A DNA stretch of 64,000 nucleotides, taken from positions 512,001-576,000 of the forward strand of contig CAVOUE010000003.1 in NCBI GenBank assembly GCA_963699545.1. The letters run 5' to 3'. Below are positions 9,078 through 64,000 of this stretch, in pieces. Position numbers and translations under genes: made by a program. Under the pieces are notes generated by a model, which was not told the DNA's origin, ran no database searches, and worked only from the letters and a program-made list of their open reading frames with translations. This DNA is from Nitrospirota bacterium (lineage in GTDB: Bacteria; Nitrospirota; Thermodesulfovibrionia; Thermodesulfovibrionales; UBA9159). Each line of letters opens with the position of its first letter. The first letter of the stretch is position 1.

Positions 9078-11555
9078 TCACGCCAACTCGATCTTGACGG
9101 CATCCATGGGTGATTCACCGTTCAGGGAAGGGTGCGTCAGCGCATTCACATTGGCATGAGGGAAATGCGTGGGCACAAACACTACGCCTTCAGGCATTTC
9201 GTCCGAGACTATGGCCTTCAGATACACTTCTCCCCTTCTGGATGTCACCTTGACGTATCCTTCGTCGTGGACCTTGTATTTCTTCGCATCCTGCGGGTTT
9301 ATCTGCAGATATGCATCTGAAACCACGGATCCGAGGTTCTTGGAAAGCACGGACAAGGCGCCTGAGTGCTGAAGAAGGTTTGAGGTGATGAGGAGCAGGG
9401 GATACTCACCGTCCGGCTTCTCCGATATCTCATGCGCTGCGGGATTGAATGAGCGAACCTCTTCCCCTGCCGGGCCTCCGGCAACGAGGTCCATGATCGC
9501 CTCCCTGATCGCAGGAAGGTCTTTTTCTCCCAGGTCCCTGTTCATCGTCCTTGCCAGGTTCCTGAATATCTTCCAGTCAGGTACTGATTGTCCCGTTTCA
9601 GGGAGGAGTTTGGGGATTTCCCGGATATTGCCGGTGGCGGACATGAAGATGCCTTCCTTTTCGCCCCAGCTGCTGGCGGGGAGGACTACGTGGGCAAGTT
9701 TTGCGGTGTCGGTAAGGATGATATCCTGAACCACAAGGAACTCAAGTGCCTTAAGTGTTTTTTCGACTGCGGAGATATTCTTGAAGGTGATCAGGGGATT
9801 CTCTCCCATCATATAAAGGGCCTTCACCGCACCGGGCTGATACAGCATTTCATGGGCGTTCTTTCCTCCGGAGAGGGGCCTCACACCGACCTTCCAGGTG
9901 CCGAGGGTGTTGCAGAATTCTGCGGGTATCTGGAGGGTGTCAGCGCTGTCTCCCATGAGGAGAACGAGATTGGCCGCGGCAAACAGGGTGTTCAGACCCT
10001 TTGTGTTTTCAGAAGCACCTGAGGTCAAGGTCAAAAGTCTGTTCTTTGCCCGCGCATATGATCTCGCCAGCTCAATGATCTCATCCTCGGAAAGGCCGGT
10101 AAGCCCGGCAACAGCGGCCGGCGTGAAGCCCGCAAGGCTCTTCACCAGGGTCTCATAGTTCGGGATAGTGAGGTTCTTGTCCTCCATGGGGACTTCCTCA
10201 TCCAGGTCATAGAGTTTCTCGTCCAGGATCACCTTTGCCATACCGTTGAGCAAAGCGATGCCGGAGCCCGGTCTGATCTGGAGCCAGGAGGAGCTGTTCC
10301 TCGCAAGTTTTGTTTCCTTGGGGTCAGCAACGACGAGCTGGGCGCCGAAGTTCCTGGCCTTGATGAAATTAAGCCCCCACACGGGCAGGGTGGAAGTGAC
10401 ATCGGATTCGACAACCAGAATGAAATCAGCCTTCAGCGGCGCATCCCACTGGATCGGCTGGAAGTCAATGCCAAAGGCCTTCTTCACCGCCTTCTGGGCT
10501 TTCGCATACCCGAAGCGGGCAGCAGAATCGATGTTGTCGGTCCCGATAACCTCCCTCATGAAGCTCTGAAGCATATAGTTGTCTTCCATGGTGCACCTCT
10601 GCGAGCCGATGGCACCGATGGCCGAAGGTCCGTCTTTCTCTTTTATGGTCTGGAGTCCCTTCGCGACATGATCGAGGGCCTCTTCCCAACTCGCCTCGAC
10701 AAGCTTCCCGTCCTTCCTGATCAGGGGGGTGGTCAATCTGTTTTCGGAATAAATGTAATCGAAGCCGAACCTGCCCCTGCTGCAGAGGTCCCCATCGTTT
10801 ATTCCCGTACCCTGCTTTCCTCTCGCCCGCACGATCCTGCCGTCCCTGAGGCTGAGGTTTGTGGTACACCCGCAGCCGCAGTAAGGGCAGGTAGTTGCCT
10901 TTTCATCCAGGAACCATACCCGTGATCTGAACCGGTACGGCTTGGACTCCCAGGGCGCCCACGGGACAGGCATCGATGCACTGGCCGCAGAACTCGCAGT
11001 CAAGGGTCTCTTCAAAGGCCGGGCTGATCTTTGACTTGAAGCCCCTGCCCAGGAGACTGATAGCGCCGACGCCCTGATGGTCATAGCAGACCCTCTCACA
11101 TTTGCCGCAGAGGATGCATCTGTTTGGGTTCCTTTCCACAAGGGGGGCCGCGATGCTTTCGGGCTCGTGCTTTCTCTCTCCCACAAAGCGGGATTCGGAC
11201 GGGCCGTACTTGAAAGCCAAGATCCTGGAGCTGACATTCCCCTGCCTTGTCGCAGATGGGACAATCCAGAGGGTGGTGTATCAGGAGGAGTTCAAGTACC
11301 AGTTTTCTGGCCTTGTGGAGTTTCGGGGTCTCCGTATGCACTACCATCCCATTTTCGGCAGGGGTGGAACAGGCGGCAAAAAGCCTCTTCTGTCCCTCCA
11401 CTTCCACTACACAGAGCCTGCAGCCGCCATAGGGTCTGAGCCTCTTGTCGTAGCAGAGGTTCGGGATAAAGATGTCGTTTCCCTTGGCAGCCTGGAGGAT
11501 GGTGGTACCCTGGTTCGACCTTAAGGGATTTTCCGTTTATTTTAAGTTCAATCAT
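9078..11555 (-). CDS. NuoG/FdhF-like Fe-S oxidoreductase subunit (frameshifted)
   Basis: N-terminal 2Fe-2S, HPLDCPICDKAGECQLQD, RCILCGKC, CEFCGQCIDACPVGAL, TTCPYCGCGC, molybdopterin-fold C-terminus; no catalytic Cys/Sec (DSAARFG). Confidence 0.85.
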
Positions 11556-11559
11556 CTTC

Positions 11560-13444
11560 TTATTCCTCCTTTCCCGCAAGTGCCTCGACCTGCTTGTTTC
11601 CGAGCGCCCGCTGGTCAGGGAGGTCCTTGAGGGTCTCACGCATGCTCAGGGGACCGATCTTCACCGAGTCGAACTTGCAGACCTCGTAGCATGACCGGCA
11701 TTGGATGCAGAGGGCCTGATCGATGCGGTGAGGCACTTTCTTCTCACCTGAGATCGCTGTCTGGGGACAAGCCTTCTTGCACAGTCCGCACGCCTTGCAC
11801 TTCTCTTCATCGATATAGAACGTACAGATGTCCTTGCAGACGCCTGTCTTGCACCATTGTTCATTTATATGGGATTCATACTCATCCCTGAAATATTTTA
11901 TCGTTGTCAGGACGGGGTTGGGCGCGGTCTGCCCAAGGCCGCAAAGGGAAGTAGAGATGATGTCATGGGACATGTCCTGGAGCAGCTCTATATCCCCCTC
12001 TTTTCCCTTCCCCTCAGTGATCTTCGTGAGGAGATCAAGCATCACCGTGGTGCCGATCCTGCAGGGAGGGCATTTGCCGCATGATTCCTCGGCAGTGAAC
12101 TCGAGGAAAAATTTGGCGACACTCACCATGCAGTTAAGGTCGTTCATGACGACCATTCCGCCCGAACCCACAATGGCCCCTGTCTGGACGATATCTTCGT
12201 AGGTCACCGGCGTATCCAGGAGATGCTTCGGGAATGCAGCCTCCGGAAGGTCCTCCCAGCTGGACCGCCTTGAATTTCCTCTTGTTCGGCACGCCACCGC
12301 CGATATCATAAATGATCTTCCTGAGGGGGATGCCCATCGGCACTTCGATCAGTCCGATATTGCTTATTGCTCCGCTCAGGGCAAAGACCTTTGTGCCGGT
12401 GGATTTTTCAGTTCCGAGGGTTCTGTACCAGTCGGCACCGTTCAGTATTATCTGGGGGATATTCGCATAGGTTTCGACGTTGTTCAGGACGGAGGGCTTA
12501 TCCCAGAGTCCCTTCTGGGCAGGGAAAGGCGGCCTCGGTCTCGGCATCCCCCGTTTGCCTTCGATGGACCGCATCAGCGCTGTCTCCTCACCGCAGACAA
12601 ACGCGCCGGCGCCCAGATAGATTTCGATATCGAGATTGAACCCCGTGCCCAGGATGTTGTCGCCGAGGAGGCCGTTTTCTTTTGCCTGGTCTATGGCAAG
12701 CTGCAGACGGTGCACCGCCAGGGGATACTCAGCCCTCACATAAATATATCCTTTATTCGCTGCGATCGCCTTTGCGCCGATGATCATCCCCTCAAGGACG
12801 ACGTGGGGATCCGCCTCCATGATACTTCTGTCCATGAATGCGCCGGGGTCTCCTTCGTCACCGTTACAGAGGATGAATTTCTGGTCGCCCTTCACTCTTG
12901 CGCAGAGCTCCCATTTCATGCCGGTGGGAAATCCCGCGCCGCCCCTTCCCCTGAGCCCGGACCTCTTCAACTCGTCGATCACCTGTTCCGGGGTCATCTC
13001 GGTCAGCGCCTTTCCTGCTGCCTGATACCCGTCCCGCGCAATGTATTCTTCGATCTTCTCTGCATCGACGAGACCCTTGTTCCTCAAGGCCCTGAGGACC
13101 TGAAGGCTGAAGAAGGGGATATCCCTCATAAGCGGGATGGTCTGCTTCTTCACCGGCTCCTTATACATGAGCCGTGCCACAGGCCTTCCCTTTATGAAAT
13201 GCTCCTCCACGATGAGGGGGACATCACTGACGGCGACCTTCTCGTAAAAGATATCTTCGGGATAGACCGTCATGACGGGACCTTCCGCGCAGAACCCGTT
13301 ACACCCCGTGAGAACCACGTTTATCTCATTTTCGAGCCCTCTATTTCTCAGCTCTTCATCAAGAGCTTTCTTGATCTTGAGACTGCCGCCGGCGATACAA
13401 CCGGTGCCTCCACACAACATGACACTGGCGCGGTAATTTTCCAT
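11560..13444 (-). CDS. nuoF: NuoF/HydB-type flavoprotein with N-terminal thioredoxin-like 2Fe-2S and C-terminal 2x4Fe-4S domains (one frameshift)
   Basis: CGGTGC, SGLRGRGGAGFPTG, NGDEGDPG, CGEETAL, ESCGKCPPCR, CKACGLCKKAC, CIQCRSCYEVC. Confidence 0.88.
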
Positions 13445-14929: not shown

Positions 14930-15307
14930 TTAAGATGTCTTTCTGTCGCGAAGCGCCTCTTTCACCGCAGCGATGAGGGTATCCGGCGTGAAGGGTTTTT
15001 CGATATAGTTGTATGCCCCGAGGCGTGTTGCCTCTTCGGCATGCTCCATGGTGCTATACCCTGTTATCATGATAACCCTCGCCTCGGGCTGCATCTCTTT
15101 CATGGTTATGAGGAATTCCATGCCATCCATGTCCGGCATCTTCAGGTCCGTGAGAATGAGGTCATAGTGGTTTTCGCGGGTCAGCCTGAGCCCGTCAGCA
15201 CCATTGCCGGCTACGTCCACCTCATATCCCTCAGGGGTTAAACATTTCCTGCAGCTGATTCGTACGATGTCTTCGTCATCGATCACAAGTATCCGTGGTT
15301 TGCTCAT
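14930..15307 (-). CDS. single-domain response regulator
   Basis: ILVIDDE, TDLKMPDMDG, ITGY, IEKPF. Confidence 0.92.
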   Translation of the reverse strand: MSKPRILVIDDEDIVRISCRKCLTPEGYEVDVAGNGADGLRLTRENHYDLILTDLKMPDMDGMEFLITMKEMQPEARVIMITGYSTMEHAEEATRLGAYNYIEKPFTPDTLIAAVKEALRDRKTS

Positions 15308-56918: not shown

Positions 56919-57698
56919 ATGTATAAAATGTTACTGTCACTGGTTGTTACTGTACTGCTGTTGCCGGTATCGTACTCGTACGGCTTCAGCACGCAGGGCG
57001 AAGACTGCTCAAAATGTCATACCCTTACGAAAGATGATGCAGCTACCCTGCTGAAAGACCTGATTCCGAACGTGAAGGTTCTGGAAGTCAGGGTGGTCCC
57101 TGTAAAGGGCCTGTGGGAAGTGGATATAGAGTCGGGCGGCAAGAAAGGGCCTCTCTATGTTGATTTCTCCAAGAAGTACATTGTATCGGGCTCCATTGTC
57201 ACTATCAAGGAGAAAAAGAACCTCACCCAGGAAAGGGCTGAAGAGCTTAACAAGGTAGTCCTGTCGCAGGATGATGTGTCAAAGATCCCGCTCGATGACG
57301 CCCTCGTGATGGGTGACAAGAGCGCCAAGCATAAAGTGATCGTTTTTGACGATCCTGACTGACCCTACTGCGGAAAACTTCATCAGGAGATGAAGAAGGT
57401 CATAGCAGAGAGGAAAGACGTTGTCTTTTATGTAAAGATGTTCCCCCTGCCGATGCACAAGGGAGCATATGATAAGGCAAAGGCCATTGTGTGTGAAAAG
57501 TCCATCACCCTTCTTGAGGATGCTTTTGCCAAGAAGGAAATCCCGAAGCCGAAATGCGATACCAAAGTGATCGACGAGAATATTGCCCTGGCCCAGAAAC
57601 TGGGTATTTCGGGCACCCCCGCGCTGATCTTTCCCGACGGCAAGGTGGTTCCGGGGGCGGTCGATGCCAAGGCCCTCATGGAAATGATCGGGAAATGA
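56919..57698 (+). CDS. dsbC: DsbC-family thiol:disulfide isomerase, probable selenoprotein (UxxC)
   Basis: Two same-frame ORFs joined by TGA (57360-57362) at the first Cys position: FDDPD-U-PYC; downstream FPLPMH and GISGTP; signal peptide. Confidence 0.82.
57378..57395 (+). promoter_or_regulatory. putative bacterial SECIS hairpin
   Basis: CTTCATC-AGGA-GATGAAG, a perfect 7-bp stem with a G-containing loop, 22 nt after the UGA. Confidence 0.6.
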
Positions 57699-57767: not shown

Positions 57768-57854
57768 GCCGAAGTGGCGGAACTGGCAGACGCGCTAGGT
57801 TCAGGGTCTAGTGGTCGCAAGGCCGTGCGGGTTCGAGTCCCGCCTTCGGCACCA
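57768..57854 (+). tRNA. tRNA-Leu(CAG)
   Basis: GCCGAAG/CTTCGGC acceptor stem, anticodon loop TT-CAG-GG, long variable arm, GTTCGAG T-loop, encoded CCA. Confidence 0.96.
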
Positions 57855-57884
57855 ATTCTTCTCTTAAACATCAATACGTTCATG

Positions 57885-57956
57885 TGTCGCGGAACCATAA
57901 CTTGTCGCAAACGACAGATTATGGTTCATTTACACGGTGCGACAAAATATGGTTCC
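57885..57956. repeat. transposon end with three putative TnsB-binding repeats
   Basis: GGAACCATAACTTGTCGCA (57891-57909); inverted copies CGACAGATTATGGTTC (57912-57927) and TGCGACAAAATATGGTTCC (57938-57956). Confidence 0.78.
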
Positions 57957-58226
57957 AAGGTGTTACGCCCTAAATGGGGATATCTTTAATAACGGCAGCC
58001 GATTACACGTAGTAACCCTTTTTCTTGGGCTCCATGGGATAAAACTGAGAGGTAATCACTGACGAATAATATATTTGTAAGGTTTCACTAGGGTGGAACT
58101 GCTTGAGTTCTGGCATAACGTCAAGGAAGCAGAGCCCGACGTTATCGTTATAAAAGAGATTTTGGGCGGCTAGGTCGCTAACGAACTACTGTATGCGGTG
58201 GCATGACATCACCGCTGAGACCGTTC

Positions 58227-58616
58227 CTATTCATCTCTACCGTTCGTCTCTTCTTTGTACTTTCTCCGCAATTGAGACAGGGCGAGAGCATCGACCGTCA
58301 TGCCGGCATATGCCACAGCTATCCCAAAGAGTATTACGAGATCCAGAATATAGAACTTTGCGGCTCCATCTGAAAAACCATGCAAGATAATCCTGCATAT
58401 TATGAGAGCAGCGACGATAATAAATACGACTATCGACCAGTACACCACACGTCGTACTGGAATTTTAAAGGTAGCGCCCGTTGTCGCATTTTCAGCTGCC
58501 TCAAGGGTCTTCTGAGCGTTGTATATGGCACCCATGACCAGGACCAACACGATAAAGGGTGGAGCGTTTCCGTCTATCAGACCGCTGAGTTTGTGCGCCT
58601 CGATCACTTCTTGCAA
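58227..58616 (-). CDS. hypothetical membrane protein (about 3 TM), transposon cargo
   Basis: 129 aa with three hydrophobic stretches; overlaps the upstream cargo gene by 13 nt. Confidence 0.65.
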   Translation of the reverse strand: MQEVIEAHKLSGLIDGNAPPFIVLVLVMGAIYNAQKTLEAAENATTGATFKIPVRRVVYWSIVVFIIVAALIICRIILHGFSDGAAKFYILDLVILFGIAVAYAGMTVDALALSQLRRKYKEETNGRDE

Positions 58617-59404
58617 CCTGTGCTCCTCAGCTTCTGTATCTCTGCCACACTGTAGTCGTTAAAATCCTTCAGACCATTAATGTCGATACATTGTTTGACC
58701 TGCTCAAGTTCCTGCTGCGACAAAAGCAGGTAGTCTTTGTCACGGACACATTTCGCGAATGGCATGGCAGACTTCTTCATCCGTCGGGTCCGGCGAATGT
58801 AATTCTTCACCTCGTATCTGTTCTCCCGGAAATGCACAGACTGTCTGTGGGGCTCGTTGGGCGCATGCGGATATTCAAAGTATAGCTCCCCAGTGTAGAG
58901 GTTTGCTCTGAAATGTCTGTTATGCCGAGTGGGCATCACATACAGGTCGACCAGCCCGTGCGCTGCAGCCGTAAGGGCAAAAGACTCCTGATTGTCGTCC
59001 ACCAAAAAGACCGGGCCCGCGAGCATCGTCACTGGTACGTTCGCTTCCTTCAAGATGCGCAAACGGTCATAGAAATCCTGGCCGTACACCCTCGGTGCTG
59101 CCTCTCCGGCCACAATGACAATCTTTTCTTTATAAAGAAGGTTGTCCAGCCATTTGCCGGACAGGAACTTGTATCCCGTTGTGCCCCTCGGAAAGTTCAG
59201 GAAGCGAAGCACCATTTCCTTGCGGGGCGTGTCATAGGCGATAACAGTGTATTTGAACGAGCTCCCGAAAAACAGGTCTCGGAACCAGAGAACAAAGACC
59301 GCCGGTGGCAGTATAATAACGGCAAAGAGCAGGAGAAAAAGGTTAATGCCCGAGAGGTTGCGGAAAAAATCTACAACTTGTTGCGCTATCCCTTGCAGTT
59401 CCAC
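58604..59404 (-). CDS. hypothetical membrane-anchored protein, possibly a degenerate PLD-like fold; transposon cargo
   Basis: 266 aa; N-terminal TM helix; IVIVAGE, TMLAGP, RHF, EYPH; G-rich RBS upstream. Confidence 0.7.
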   Translation of the reverse strand: MELQGIAQQVVDFFRNLSGINLFLLLFAVIILPPAVFVLWFRDLFFGSSFKYTVIAYDTPRKEMVLRFLNFPRGTTGYKFLSGKWLDNLLYKEKIVIVAGEAAPRVYGQDFYDRLRILKEANVPVTMLAGPVFLVDDNQESFALTAAAHGLVDLYVMPTRHNRHFRANLYTGELYFEYPHAPNEPHRQSVHFRENRYEVKNYIRRTRRMKKSAMPFAKCVRDKDYLLLSQQELEQVKQCIDINGLKDFNDYSVAEIQKLRSTGCKK

Positions 59405-59438
59405 GAATCCACCCCCCCCTCCGTCGTACTATCTACTG

Positions 59439-59467
59439 AATTTACCAGACTATTTTGAAATTGTCAA
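59439..59467 (-). promoter_or_regulatory. sigma70 promoter for the cargo operon
   Basis: Minus-strand TTGACA-17 nt-TAAATT upstream of the cargo RBS. Confidence 0.6.
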
Positions 59468-59579
59468 GGGCTTGTACTGGGCGTGTCAAGGCAAAGCCTA
59501 GGTCCGAGGCCATCGTAAAAGCAATTTCCAATCAGTGATGGATGTTCGAACTGAGCGGAATATCCATCTCAGGGAGTAG

Positions 59580-60983
59580 TCAATTGAGCCTTAATCGGCA
59601 GCCGCTACCCGTGAGATTAGTAATCACTTCCTCGCAGATTCTCTTGCACGCTGCCCTTTCGTCCGGCTTCTGGCTGACTGTATCTCTGCCCCCGATATCT
59701 AAAGCAACTAATTTTTGCGTTGGCCGTATCCCTTGATGTATTAGCCTGACTGCGCTTTCTTTGTACAGGGCGCACTTATCCTCAAACTTCCGGTTTTTCA
59801 AGGAGTGCCGGTGTGCTTGAAACCGCTCATTCATTTTCCTGGCAAGAGCTCCGAATGTACGAAAAAGAGTGCGGCGGCTGACACCAATCTTCATGGCTGC
59901 TACAGCCACACTGACCGGAGGGTTCACACTCACAAGCGTTTCGAGTTGCCGCTTCACTGCCTTTCTATCGAATCTCCGCGTCTCTCTTTCACGAAAGGAC
60001 CTTCGGCTGCTCGTATGCGCGTTGACAATCTCTGTTCCTTCAAAATCAACATGAGCCCCCAGCATCACATCAGCTATGGAACACCCGCACGAATACGCGA
60101 TCTCAACTGTCTGTGGAAAGGTTGGTAAGAACCCGCCGTTCATCCATCCATGTAACGTGGTTTTCTTGATGCCCAACAGCCGTCCAAAGATAGCCGCTTT
60201 TCCTCCGGCAAAATGCCGTACAGCATCTCTAAGGAACGCAGGGATCCCGCAACCAGCAACGCCATGAGCATCAGCCTTCAGCATCTTCATATCGCCTAAC
60301 AGGTCCGCTACGAGTTGCGCCCGGTCCACTTCATCCTGCGAGGCGCTTTTTATCAATGCTTCATAATTTCGTGTCAGGAAGCGCCCGCAGGAGTCACAAT
60401 ATCCCGATAGGTGTTTAATCTGTCGTGTCAACAGAGGCGATAACCCACTGCATTCGCATCGGTTGATCAACTTGATCCTGTGTTTTGGACAGGCATCGAC
60501 AGCCGCGATTGCCCAAAGAAGCTGCCCGTAGACCCTGCCCTCTTTAGCCGCTTCCTCAAAACACAGCGGGCACCATTTCTTTGCCTGGCTGGTAAGCCGC
60601 TGCTTGTTCGTATACGGCCTCAAAGGAACCAGTGTCAGATCAACAAGGTTTGCCTGCCCTGTCAGCTCGCTCAGGACCTTCGCCCATCTCTCCGGTGGGG
60701 CGCCGATCCCATTGAACAACGGCATGTTCCATACGGTGAAGGCGCCATCGCTTCGGCGCTCACCTTCGCCGACCATTCGCGGGATTATCAGTTCTCTCGC
60801 CAGGGTCTTAGGCGACAGATGGTGAAGATGGGCAAGGGCAAGATAATAACTGCTGAGGCTTTCCCTGTATGGGGTTCCCATCCCCATCGGCTTTAGTGAC
60901 GCCAGAACTGATCTCGAGGGGACCCGTGCATACGGGTCCCCTCCTACCAACGGATAATCCTCGAGCTCGTCGATTGCCGTCAC
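59580..60983 (-). CDS. tniQ: TniQ/TnsD target-selector protein (long form)
   Basis: PMGMGTPYRESLSSY, WCPLC, ACPKH, CEC..CDSC zinc motifs, C-terminal HTH-like regions; 467 aa. Confidence 0.88.
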   Translation of the reverse strand: MTAIDELEDYPLVGGDPYARVPSRSVLASLKPMGMGTPYRESLSSYYLALAHLHHLSPKTLARELIIPRMVGEGERRSDGAFTVWNMPLFNGIGAPPERWAKVLSELTGQANLVDLTLVPLRPYTNKQRLTSQAKKWCPLCFEEAAKEGRVYGQLLWAIAAVDACPKHRIKLINRCECSGLSPLLTRQIKHLSGYCDSCGRFLTRNYEALIKSASQDEVDRAQLVADLLGDMKMLKADAHGVAGCGIPAFLRDAVRHFAGGKAAIFGRLLGIKKTTLHGWMNGGFLPTFPQTVEIAYSCGCSIADVMLGAHVDFEGTEIVNAHTSSRRSFRERETRRFDRKAVKRQLETLVSVNPPVSVAVAAMKIGVSRRTLFRTFGALARKMNERFQAHRHSLKNRKFEDKCALYKESAVRLIHQGIRPTQKLVALDIGGRDTVSQKPDERAACKRICEEVITNLTGSGCRLRLN

Positions 60984-62074
60984 GCCGCCTTCTTCTCGGT
61001 AGCGGTTTTGGCGATCAGTATCCTCGAGCCGAAGATGGTCTTCTCAATTTCTACCTCTCCCTTCAATGTCTCTTCGAGGATGGATGTGACCTGCCCTTCG
61101 GTAAGTAGCGCCTTTGCGAGACAGGCATCCGACCATTTCCCATTGTTCTGTAAAAGAGCGAACGCAAGTGCCCTTTGCATAGTTTCCTTCATTGTGCCCA
61201 CACAGCCAATGCAGGACTGTATCAGCTCACCGGACCACGGCGTCAGGTCTGGAACTCCTTTGATCGGATAGAATGCCTGCAGTTTGGCGATGCTTTTCGT
61301 AAACGCCTTCTCGTCCTCCGGAATTCCCGGGCGGTACCTCTGAAAGTGCACAATGGCGGTCCGCCGCGCAACCTGACCGCTCAGGCCCATCAACTGATAA
61401 AGGTCGTAGGAGCCGATCAATGCCAGGGTGAGGTTAACCCCTTCGAGCACGGTCAACGCCTTCAATGCGTCCATGTGAGCGGCCAGCGCATCCCCTCTCG
61501 CATTCCGTATGAGATGGACTGCCTCATCGATGATGACCAGGAGAGTGTTTCGGTAACGCAGGGCATCTTCAACGGCCATCCGGAGTCCGGCCACGGTACT
61601 CCCACCAGTGACTTGCTTTACGGACAGGCGGCCGTCAGAAAGCCGGAATTCCTGCTTCTTGTCAATCAACGGATCGATGAGAGCCTTCCCGAGTTTGATG
61701 TAAAAAATACGCCAGGCAAATTTCTTCTCTCCGGAAGACGGCGCAGAGATCATAACTGCAGGAATAAAACTCAGGTCCTCCAACATTTCAGCATGATGCG
61801 CTTTGATGATCCGCTCCAGAAGCGATGTTCCAAGCGTTGTCTTGCCTGCCCCAGTCGGGCCGATCACCAGGGCAATATCCGTCCCAGATCCCGGCAGGAC
61901 CATGGTTCCCAGGTCGTCAAGGATCGACGCCACCCTTGGGTGTTTCACCCGCACCCGCCAGAAATAGGCAAGCTTTTCATCATTAGAAGAGAGTAGCATT
62001 GCCTCCTCAGGGGTCATGTCTTTCGGATTAATCGCTGGGTTGATCTTAGAATAGTTCGTATTCTTCCTCCTCAA
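60980..62074 (-). CDS. tnsC: TnsC/TniB AAA+ ATPase
   Basis: Walker A GPTGAGKT, Walker B LVIIDEA, QVARR, GCVG; lies between the transposase and tniQ. Confidence 0.9.
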   Translation of the reverse strand: MRRKNTNYSKINPAINPKDMTPEEAMLLSSNDEKLAYFWRVRVKHPRVASILDDLGTMVLPGSGTDIALVIGPTGAGKTTLGTSLLERIIKAHHAEMLEDLSFIPAVMISAPSSGEKKFAWRIFYIKLGKALIDPLIDKKQEFRLSDGRLSVKQVTGGSTVAGLRMAVEDALRYRNTLLVIIDEAVHLIRNARGDALAAHMDALKALTVLEGVNLTLALIGSYDLYQLMGLSGQVARRTAIVHFQRYRPGIPEDEKAFTKSIAKLQAFYPIKGVPDLTPWSGELIQSCIGCVGTMKETMQRALAFALLQNNGKWSDACLAKALLTEGQVTSILEETLKGEVEIEKTIFGSRILIAKTATEKKAA

Positions 62075-64000
62075 TATCGGCCATCGGTTCCTGGACCGCT
62101 GGCGCTGAAGTATCTATAACCGAAGACGAAGGCTGAGGCACAGGGGGGCATGCCAGATCAGTAGGAGACTGGGGCGTAAGATCCTCCACCGTCGTCATGC
62201 CCAGGCGCTCATACACTATCCGCGCCTCACTCTGCTGCTCCCTCAGCCTTTCGTCGAAATTCCTTGCATCCAGTACCGTCATCCATTCAGCTATACGTTC
62301 GGGCGATAGGTCCTTCTTTTGGATATTGTGCTCTTTCGCCAGCTCTTCAAAGGCATAGCGCAGCTCTATCACGGTATACTGTCGGAGCCGCCAAGCCAGT
62401 TTGGACTCGCATTTATGCCACTGCTTGTTTACCAATGCATATACGAACCTCACATCCCATGGATCGATCCGGATATCGACGGGGTTCTTATCCAGGCTGG
62501 CAGCCCTGAAGGCATTGCTCCAGTACCAGATATGATTGATCTTGACGCCGCGCTGGCCGTCAATAATGCGGGTCCCCTGGGCGTCAGGCGCCGGGCATGT
62601 CTCGATAAGGAACAGACGGTCGAAGCGGACAATGCGGTGCAGGCGCATCCCGGTATCAGTCATCCGTGTTACGAAGTGCTTCACAGGCTCCTCCCCATGC
62701 GCCGGATGATTCTCGGTGCCGTAGAGATTCTGGAAATAGTAGTCCAGCGCGCCATGCAGTGCCGGCAGCGTCCATTCCACAAAGTTCTTCGGGTTTACGG
62801 ATTTGGTGACGGTGCGGACGTGCTTCATGAGCTGGGTATTACCTTTCATATTATGGATTAGCTGAGATTGGGTCGTTCCGAAGAGACGCTCCATTACCGA
62901 GCCGTGACGCGGCTGGCCTGCCGGACGATACCTGATGCTGCACCCATAAAGCTTGCAAACACGCTTGAACTCACGCGACTTAAAGTCTTTTCCGTTGTCC
63001 AAAATGAGCATATCAGGCATACGTCCGTGCCTTCTCACGATATCGCGAAGGACCATCATGCAGGATTTGTAGCTCGGCGGCTCAAAGGACAAATAAAAGC
63101 CGACCACCCTGCGGGATTCGGCGTCGATTGCCAGGGAAAGCCAGGCATGCCACTTTGAGTTCTTTTGCCTGGGGGAGCGGAGCAGGATATCCAGCGGCGT
63201 ATGATCGATATGCACATACTGGAACGGACGGACACCATGTATGGCCTCGGTGAGCTTCAGATACCAGACGATGGGCTGGGTCTGGTAAAAGGCCCTTTTG
63301 CCCTTGCGCTGACGAATAGATATAAGTCTGTCGACTTCCTTATTGAAGGTCTTTTGCGAGCAGGGCTTCAGACCGAGTGACTGACAAACACCCAGGAACT
63401 CTTTGTACGCCGCACTTTTGTTGATGTTGGTGGGAGTGTTGACTTCCTTTTTAACGAAATCTTTTATCGCAGCGATCAGGGCCTGCGGAATCTTCCGGAG
63501 TCGGTTTCCACGGTCCATCAGCTTCGGAACGAGGGCCAGCATCTGATCAATGGCGCTTTCTCCTGCTTCCTTAGCGGCTTTCCGGAGGCGCTGCATGGTG
63601 CGTTTAGATTTTGTAACAAACTGTGGCGCTACGCCGGCATATTCAAGCTGCCGTGCTCTTTCGAGCGCCGCGTCCATATACTTGGGTGATATGGCGGCTA
63701 TTGGTTCATCATTCGAATCGTGATGCACAGAGGATCTGATAATGAGCTTGCCGGCCGCATACTGCTTTTCCAATACTTCCAGCGAAAGCTCAGTGGTGCC
63801 GTCATCTGTCGAGAGCATTACGGACTTCTGCCCCACAAGATCAATCCGATAGGTCCTGCCGTCATAATCGACTTCCGTCCCTACAGCAAACGATACGTCA
63901 AGACGATCTGGCTCATTGATATTGCTGGCAGATTCAATCCTTTGATAAAATGCAAGCGTGGTCTTATCGCGATAAACACGCGCCCTCTGCGTCTCGGCGA
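62046..64000 (-). CDS. tnsB: TnsB-type DDE transposase, 5'-truncated by the window edge (probable TnsA-TnsB fusion)
   Basis: HIDHT, LDNGKDF, MERLFG DDE triad and a Mu-type C-terminus; the frame is open to position 64000. Confidence 0.9.
   Translation of the reverse strand, partial: AETQRARVYRDKTTLAFYQRIESASNINEPDRLDVSFAVGTEVDYDGRTYRIDLVGQKSVMLSTDDGTTELSLEVLEKQYAAGKLIIRSSVHHDSNDEPIAAISPKYMDAALERARQLEYAGVAPQFVTKSKRTMQRLRKAAKEAGESAIDQMLALVPKLMDRGNRLRKIPQALIAAIKDFVKKEVNTPTNINKSAAYKEFLGVCQSLGLKPCSQKTFNKEVDRLISIRQRKGKRAFYQTQPIVWYLKLTEAIHGVRPFQYVHIDHTPLDILLRSPRQKNSKWHAWLSLAIDAESRRVVGFYLSFEPPSYKSCMMVLRDIVRRHGRMPDMLILDNGKDFKSREFKRVCKLYGCSIRYRPAGQPRHGSVMERLFGTTQSQLIHNMKGNTQLMKHVRTVTKSVNPKNFVEWTLPALHGALDYYFQNLYGTENHPAHGEEPVKHFVTRMTDTGMRLHRIVRFDRLFLIETCPAPDAQGTRIIDGQRGVKINHIWYWSNAFRAASLDKNPVDIRIDPWDVRFVYALVNKQWHKCESKLAWRLRQYTVIELRYAFEELAKEHNIQKKDLSPERIAEWMTVLDARNFDERLREQQSEARIVYERLGMTTVEDLTPQSPTDLACPPVPQPSSSVIDTSAPAVQEPMADIEEEEYELF

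Follow-up and report, generated by a model that had tools for sequence, protein, structure and literature searches.

What kind of mobile element lies directly behind a tRNA-Leu gene in the genome of a Nitrospirota bacterium, and by what machinery did it come to stand there? The locus lies in assembly GCA_963699545.1, within a window of 64,000 nucleotides (the whole stretch of DNA that was analysed, positions 512,001 to 576,000 of contig CAVOUE010000003.1; G000:C3:512001-576000), and the following 50 kb of the contig was also analysed, with positions there given as window equivalents. An initial annotation, made from the letters of the window, had proposed a Tn7-like transposon targeting tRNA-Leu. 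The element was delimited from 57883 to window-equivalent 77542, a length of 19,660 bp, with a G+C content of 47.2% against 52.1% genome-wide. With a probability of roughly 0.88, it is a Tn7-like transposon from the branch that homes to tRNA genes and has TnsA fused to TnsB, equipped with a TnsAB, TnsC and TnsD pathway and devoid of a CRISPR arm. The attachment site, the duplicated target and the two ends were located as follows.

57768-57854, plus strand: tRNA-Leu(CAG), intact, the attachment-site gene (ARAGORN; Rfam tRNA, 49.5 bits).
57878-57882: left copy of the target-site duplication GTTCA, directly before TGTG.
57883-57960, plus strand: left (tRNA-proximal) end, beginning TGTGTCGCGG, with three transposase-site cores, one facing outward (57892-57907) and two (57912-57927 and 57940-57955) inverted relative to the first.
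Window-equivalent 77390-77542 (L003 390-542): right (distal) end, terminating ...CACGGCACA at L003 542, with four cores at L003 400, 431, 496 and 519 (C3 589400, 589431, 589496 and 589519), all on the plus strand, in a single orientation and facing out.
Window-equivalent 77543-77547 (L003 543-547): right copy of GTTCA, directly after ...CACA.

The tRNA-Leu(CAG) gene was the sole tRNA called by ARAGORN between 50000 and 64000, is the sole one of its kind in the assembly (45 tRNAs in all), and was left intact by the insertion according to both ARAGORN and Rfam, as had been claimed. Its CCA is followed by ATTCTTCTCTTAAACATCAATACGTTCA and then by TGTGTCGCGGAACCATAAC, the element starting with TGTG at 57883, 28 nt past the CCA. 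The initial annotation had placed the end at a TGT 31 nt past the CCA; that TGT exists (57885) but is not the true terminus. Its preferred duplication, TCATG (57880-57884), was wrong, while its alternative, GTTCA with the end at 57883, is repeated perfectly on both flanks, and the distal end that it expected in the next window was found as ...CACA at 77542. The element is thus inserted a short, fixed distance 3' of an intact tRNA gene, with a 5-bp duplication.

The 16-nt site core CGACAnnnTATGGTTC, searched with up to 2 mismatches, had 54 matches in the 3.04-Mb genome, seven of which lie in the two element ends; all three exact matches are in the tRNA-side end, at 57892 (minus), 57912 (plus) and 57940 (plus). 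These counts argue that the ends are not due to chance, and clusters of cores occurred genome-wide at the two element ends only. Sites stand in both orientations at the left end and in one orientation at the right end, and the same left-end pattern was found in seven related loci described below (L007, L038, L040, L024, L009, L010, and L011). According to the available text of PMC9881144, a left end with sites in both orientations, paired with a right end whose sites share one orientation, marks the cyanobacterial branch of tRNA-targeting elements with fused TnsAB. Searching the genome with the terminal 30-mer (up to 9 mismatches) revealed no second end. The two termini matched at 12 of 30 positions without gaps; when one gap was allowed, inspection by eye gave about 18 matches in 26. 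It is the site arrays and the duplication that carry the argument for the ends.

The transposition genes form a compact minus-strand group directed at the tRNA, the order and direction that had been read initially for tnsB, tnsC and tniQ.

62046-64000 within the window, whole open reading frame (ORF) window-equivalent 62046-64814 (L002 5046-7814), minus strand: tnsAB fusion, 922 aa.
60980-62074, minus strand: tnsC, 364 aa, AAA+ ATPase (Pfam AAA_22/TniB).
59580-60983, minus strand: tniQ/tnsD, 467 aa, with the TniQ domain at residues 33-172 (Pfam E 1.6e-16).

All three frames are open and full length, with overlaps between tnsAB and tnsC (62046-62074) and between tnsC and tniQ (60980-60983), where the start of tniQ lies over the stop of tnsC. 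The transposase frame, which had been noted as running past the window, proved to be one ORF of 922 codons with a probable start at M11 (window-equivalent 64784, preceded by AAGGAGG); TnsAB of the relatives begins at the same position and the database entry P0036 has 912 aa, which makes a product of 912 aa likely. TnsA and TnsB occur in a single polypeptide, with Pfam TnsA-like_N at residues 87-174 and rve at residues 529-635, and residues 23-864 align end to end with PDB 9bw1_M (898 aa; E 4.6e-133). The DDE residues D537, D606 and E642 are invariant in 34 homologues, and the part of TnsAB inside the window gave a weak match to the Mu-transposase C-terminal family (E 0.0003; 21.2 against a cut-off of 21.7 bits). 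TnsC matched PDB 8fcu_Q and 9g0f_A (E ~8e-40). Residues 20-426 of TniQ matched the 462-aa PDB chain 8v32_J ('TnsD'; E 2.6e-39), the C-terminal part aligning with that chain and conserved Cys and His residues being present; the protein that had been called a long TniQ does have 467 aa, but is simply of TnsD size. An AAA+ TnsC and a TnsD-sized TniQ are therefore encoded beside the transposase. The full-length alignment with 9bw1_M and the presence of both domains on one ORF indicate that the suspected fusion is real, with no separate tnsA, and that TniQ is a TnsD-type selector.

The PDB labels of the 9bw1, 8v32 and 8fcu chains read only 'Integrase', 'TnsD' and 'TnsC'. These entries were taken as the TnsABCD complex of the CRISPR-associated transposon (CAST) PmcCAST, from the chain lengths and from the available text of PMC11915506, which gives PmcTnsAB 898 residues, the same as 9bw1_M, and cites the structure.

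Related elements share this placement. The TniQ search returned 34 database matches at E <=0.001 among 8000 scored candidates, including 25 non-self proteins at 51-64% identity, the named ones from Nitrospiraceae and Dissulfurispiraceae. Scans with an alignment of 24 TniQ proteins gave 13 loci on genome contigs and 18 on metagenome contigs; L034 is a duplicate of L008, as are L035 and L036 of L009, and these three were left uncounted. Besides our element, a recognisable left end was present in nine loci, listed here with TniQ identity, adjoining gene and distance.

L007: 63%; tRNA-Asn(GTT); 31 nt.
L032: 60%; tRNA-His(GTG), CCA not encoded; 30 nt.
L040: 32%; tRNA-Arg(TCT); 28 nt.
L024: about 28-31%; transfer-messenger RNA (tmRNA); 28 nt.
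L010: 34%; tmRNA; 27 nt.
L011: 33%; tmRNA; 28 nt.
L009: 35%; tmRNA (Rfam 122.9 bits; two N in the spacer); 30 nt.
L038: about 33%; partial tRNA 3' end ...CTCCACCA, the contig ending 43 nt outside the end; 29 nt.
L029: 45% (178-aa C-terminal fragment); no tRNA and no distance.

Seven of the nine left ends thus lie 27-31 nt behind a called tRNA or tmRNA gene, and eight are beside one when the partial tRNA of L038 is counted. The empty site could also be recognised. Of 31 related genomes, with G000 counted, 25 have the PIN_5 gene that lies downstream of the element, and this gene adjoins tRNA-Leu(CAG) in two of nine scanned loci from other genomes, G401 (L051) and G175 (L056). In G401, a genome of the same genus, the site is free of the element and 86 bp separate tRNA-Leu(CAG) from PIN_5, while the order in G000 is tRNA-Leu, 28 bp, element, about 1.1 kb, PIN_5. 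That the sequences downstream differ is consistent with recognition of the tRNA gene by the selector, and not of the insertion point. The lack of the element at this tRNA in G401 indicates that the insertion is not old. A distal end, a matching duplication, a fused TnsA and relatives placed behind tRNAs together support the interpretation first given to the locus.

Fused-length TnsAB homologues numbered 160 at E <=0.001 (7999 scored candidates), the best 120 of them being mostly ~900 aa long. Those with names came from Dissulfurispiraceae and Nitrospiraceae (Nitrospirota), Holophagaceae and Geothrix (Acidobacteriota), and many Burkholderiales. Judging from these homologues, the TnsAB fusion is widespread outside cyanobacteria, so that the earlier view of it as mainly cyanobacterial did not hold, while the placing of our element as a member of the group outside that phylum did, given its Nitrospirota host and its left end with both site orientations. 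Members from outside the cyanobacteria may already be among the fused-TnsAB elements that PMC9881144 and PMC10293859 list, with their taxa, in supplementary tables.

Several known systems resemble the element to different extents. Canonical Tn7 encodes TnsA, TnsB, TnsC, TnsD and TnsE and inserts at attTn7 behind glmS. Our element resembles Tn7 in a selector that reads a conserved gene, insertion directly downstream with a 5-bp duplication, TGT...ACA ends and asymmetric arrays of TnsB sites; it differs in the fusion of TnsA to TnsB, the lack of any TnsE-like match among the scanned ORFs, a tRNA target in place of glmS, and a target-proximal left end with sites in both orientations, so that the separate TnsA and TnsB, TnsE and glmS site of canonical Tn7 are all missing. 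The likeness is closer to the TnsABCD homing module of PmcCAST (type I-B2), which also has fused TnsAB, TnsC, a TnsD-sized selector, a tRNA attachment site with insertion ~30 bp downstream, and an acidic-aromatic C-terminal tail (…EEEEYELF). In contrast to PmcCAST, our element belongs to a different phylum, has no Cascade genes, array or second small TniQ, carries a CI-like S24 repressor beside tnsAB and an arginine in place of lysine in the TnsA motif, and has a tns operon that reads towards the tRNA-side end.

The resemblance to the type I-D systems McCAST and CyCAST is drawn only from the solved complex taken as PmcCAST. According to the available text of PMC9881144 and PMC10293859, these systems share with our element a tRNA-Leu target, a target-proximal left end, a 5-bp duplication and insertion ~30 nt past the tRNA; TnsD of McCAST steers insertion downstream of tRNA-Leu with the left end target-proximal (PMC9881144) and homing by CyCAST leads to insertion 30-33 nt behind the tRNA (PMC10293859). 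Our element showed no type I-D cas genes, and its ends are TGT/ACA, compared with TAC/GTA as described for McCAST.

By analogy with these characterised relatives, the 467-aa TniQ/TnsD would bind the tRNA-Leu(CAG) gene and recruit a ring of TnsC, which would position the TnsAB transpososome for insertion ~28 bp beyond the tRNA 3' end. As observed here, the left end faces the tRNA, five base pairs are duplicated and the tRNA is intact. The tns operon is most likely held off by a lambda-CI-like repressor that the element itself encodes and that would act at three predicted operators. It is well supported that this intact-looking element belongs to a family which is already known and solved in its mechanism, but which had not been characterised in this phylum; the only unusual points are the repressor switch and the Lys-to-Arg change.

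Five observations weigh against this interpretation. The left end of L029 (1823-1870) has no adjoining tRNA. The direction of the operon differs among our element, L008 and L009-L011, indicating that gene order relative to the ends is not fixed: the tns operon of L008 (TnsAB 67% identical) is directed at a right-end-like terminus downstream of tniQ (15100-15262), which implies that even close relatives differ in the orientation of the core module with respect to the ends, and the operons of L009-L011 read away from the left end. The TnsA-like_N score, 26.2 bits, is marginally below the cut-off of 26.5. The ~1.1 kb between the right end and PIN_5 (window-equivalent 77543-78640; L005 13543-14640) has no counterpart in G401, and the pre-insertion site is accordingly reconstructed only in part. 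Finally, R132 in the TnsA domain makes cleavage of the 5' strand uncertain.

This last point bears on the strongest competing explanation, namely that the same element moves replicatively, through cointegrates, because its TnsA domain is catalytically impaired; we can only infer which of the two modes, cut-and-paste or replicative, applies, and consider the replicative one unlikely, though deserving attention. The TnsA motif reads PD(116-117)...E130-W-R132, with arginine in place of the usual lysine of (D/E)xK (codon near window-equivalent 64419-64421). In an alignment of 34 TnsAB proteins, the 22 homologues that are at least 44% identical to ours carry R (18 proteins), H (one) or K (three) at position 132, and those of the clade at 36-38% carry K in 12 of 12 cases; 9bw1_M also has K at the aligned position (EECK compared with EEWR). 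The predominance of R among the closer homologues favours impairment, whereas E69, E74, E82 and E130 are invariant in the 34 homologues and D117 nearly so, such that the pocket looks selected and Arg may substitute. Moreover, the catalytic residue was assigned by motif pattern and by comparison with the catalytic residues of Tn7 TnsA, which we take to be E63, D114 and K132 (a literature search gave no confirmation), and not by structural superposition; a PDB profile search with the 34 TnsAB proteins did not reach Tn7 TnsA. The available text of PMC9881144 states that the fused TnsAB of PmcCAST was earlier reported to form cointegrates, though McCAST cuts and pastes. Family scans of the ORFs found no resolvase in our element, and the insertion here is clean and simple, though a resolved cointegrate would look alike.

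A decayed, immobile relic, standing at tRNA-Leu by descent and with a TniQ that no longer steers there or never did, is considerably less probable. It would agree with the single copy of the element in the genome and with the state of tniQ in the relative L007, which is split between two frames (10019-11360; residues 7-93 and 97-454) by a frameshift or a sequencing error. On the other side stand the open, full-length frames of the three tns genes and the repressor, the perfect duplication, the recent insertion indicated by G401, and the relatives with about 32-63% identical TniQ found at the same distance from different tRNAs. The tRNA-homing transposon described above may still be active.

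A search for CRISPR components, integrases and resolvases covered all element ORFs of at least ~90 aa with Pfam, NCBIfam and PADLOC, and detected no cas, integrase or resolvase family; a weak PADLOC line for Cas1a (E 0.00096) falls on the Mrr_cat protein of the cargo. Between tniQ and the left end there is no cas gene or array, as the initial annotation had said, and no tandem repeat, only two ORFs without a family match. Rfam found no RNA family besides the tRNA, L002 contains no tandem repeats, and TniQ is single-copy genome-wide, with no second TniQ. The cas effector genes, array and second small TniQ expected of a CAST were therefore not found, and a CAST of type I-B2 or I-D kind with a missed guide system, or an integrase-type island, is very improbable in view of these searches and of a 5-bp duplication that is no repeat of the tRNA 3' end, even though the closest solved relatives are taken as coming from a type I-B2 CAST and tRNA genes are classic sites of integrase islands.

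How might such an element be controlled? A putative regulator is encoded upstream of tnsAB and is divergent from it.

Window-equivalent 64948-65568 (L002 7948-8568), plus strand: lambda-CI/LexA-like repressor, 206 aa.
Window-equivalent 64823-64945, between tnsAB and the repressor gene: control region with operator-like palindromes and divergent promoter-like sites.

The repressor frame contains an HTH_3 (helix-turn-helix, HTH) domain (E 9.9e-11) and a Peptidase_S24 domain (E 3.5e-28), and among solved structures it is closest to lambda cI (3bdn_A; E 4e-13), with which the A91-G92 cleavage site, S127 and K164 align. By sequence, the protein has the HTH, Ser-Lys dyad and Ala-Gly site of autocleaving S24 repressors. 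In the control region, three operator-like palindromes of the form GTTAGn6CTAAC begin at L002 7823, 7884 and 7930, and this pattern has only one other occurrence in the genome. A perfect TTGACA-18-TATAAT promoter-like site points towards the repressor gene and weaker ones towards tnsAB. The palindrome CTTGACAGTCAAG is common to the -35 boxes, while the second and third of the operator-like palindromes contain the -10 boxes. The layout of repressor, palindromes and promoters is kept in L006 and L007, where the repressors are 70% identical. It resembles lambda CI and other S24 repressors of mobile elements in its N-terminal HTH, C-terminal S24 domain and three palindromic operators between divergent promoters, but unlike lambda CI our repressor adjoins a Tn7-type transposase operon and not phage lytic genes.

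These features suggest that the repressor most likely represses the tns operon at the three operator-like sites, and release through RecA-stimulated cleavage is possible. We tentatively propose for this sub-clade, with somewhat less than even confidence, a phage-style switch, in which an autocleavable CI-like repressor acts at three operators and DNA damage, through activated RecA, turns on tnsAB-tnsC-tniQ and triggers homing, maybe coupled to an altered chemistry of 5' cleavage (the Lys-to-Arg change in TnsA). Tn7 and one I-F3 CAST are not SOS-regulated according to the available text of PMC12452197, and a switch of the SOS type would, if true, represent a new mode of control in the Tn7 family. 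No Tn7-like element carrying a repressor of the LexA/S24 type came up in a literature search, and the terms 'S24', 'LexA' and 'repressor' are absent from the main text of PMC8649781.

Among the five close elements (TnsAB at least 67% identical) for which upstream sequence is present, the upstream regulator has HTH and S24 domains in ours, L006 and L007, and HTH only in L008 and L074. The repressor as a fixed part of the transposition module was rejected in view of the HTH-only regulators and of homologues without tns genes: in five genomes, repressor homologues at 53-56% identity have no tns gene nearby. Of the two neighbourhoods inspected, L075 has a phage O-replication gene beside the repressor homologue, and in L078 the homologue adjoins a restriction-modification pair of BsoBI type.

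These results extend the solved TnsAB-TnsC-TnsD tRNA-homing machine to Nitrospirota and Acidobacteriota, and leave the general picture of Tn7-like elements unchanged. They also provide a natural series of TniQ proteins, about 32-63% identical, behind tRNA-Leu, -Asn, -His and -Arg and tmRNA, useful for understanding target reading by TnsD and for protein-guided insertion tools with new landing sites. Working as proposed, the repressor switch would offer a simple handle on the timing of element movement.

The remainder of the element is made up of cargo and ORFs of unassigned family.

58227-58616, minus strand: ORF of 129 aa, no family match; cargo or unknown.
58604-59404, minus strand: ORF of 266 aa, no family match; cargo or unknown.
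Window-equivalent 65689-77142: cargo region, including ORFs without a family match.
L002 8689-9822: T5orf172/MUG113 protein, cargo.
L002 9858-12368: UvrD/GajB-like helicase with a Zn ribbon, 836 aa, cargo.
L002 16241-17284: Mrr_cat nuclease, cargo.
L002 17390-18175: NERD and Zn ribbon protein, cargo.

None of the cargo genes recurred in the related loci.

Some further features of the relatives were observed. A right end was not found inside the L007 locus. The terminus of L008 has all its sites in one orientation and ends ...GGCACA, and the left end of this element lies beyond the locus. In L029, 18 nt outside the left end, a 16-nt stretch resembles, in reverse complement, the 3' end of a tRNA. 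The Holophagaceae loci L010 (4874-5080) and L009 (4880-5200) contain, beside the tmRNA, a second left-end-like copy ~155-250 bp inside the first, and L010 has an additional left-end-like sequence at 13139; the doubled left ends may be stacked or remnant ends. The distant Nitrospira relatives L018 (6073-6831) and L048 (6253-7011), with TniQ at ~31% identity, encode a separate TnsA of 252 aa with an EVK motif and have an HTH regulator upstream; downstream of tniQ, a tRNA-His lies at ~4.5 kb in L018 and ~6.2 kb in L048.

On the flanks of our element, the ~1.1-kb segment beyond the right end (77543-78640) contains no transposase-site cores. Directly upstream of the tRNA, a DsbC-like gene (56919-57698) is broken into two ORFs, one of 147 aa with DsbC_N and one of 102 aa with a thioredoxin domain starting from profile position 23, a split that could reflect a frameshift, a pseudogene or an assembly error.

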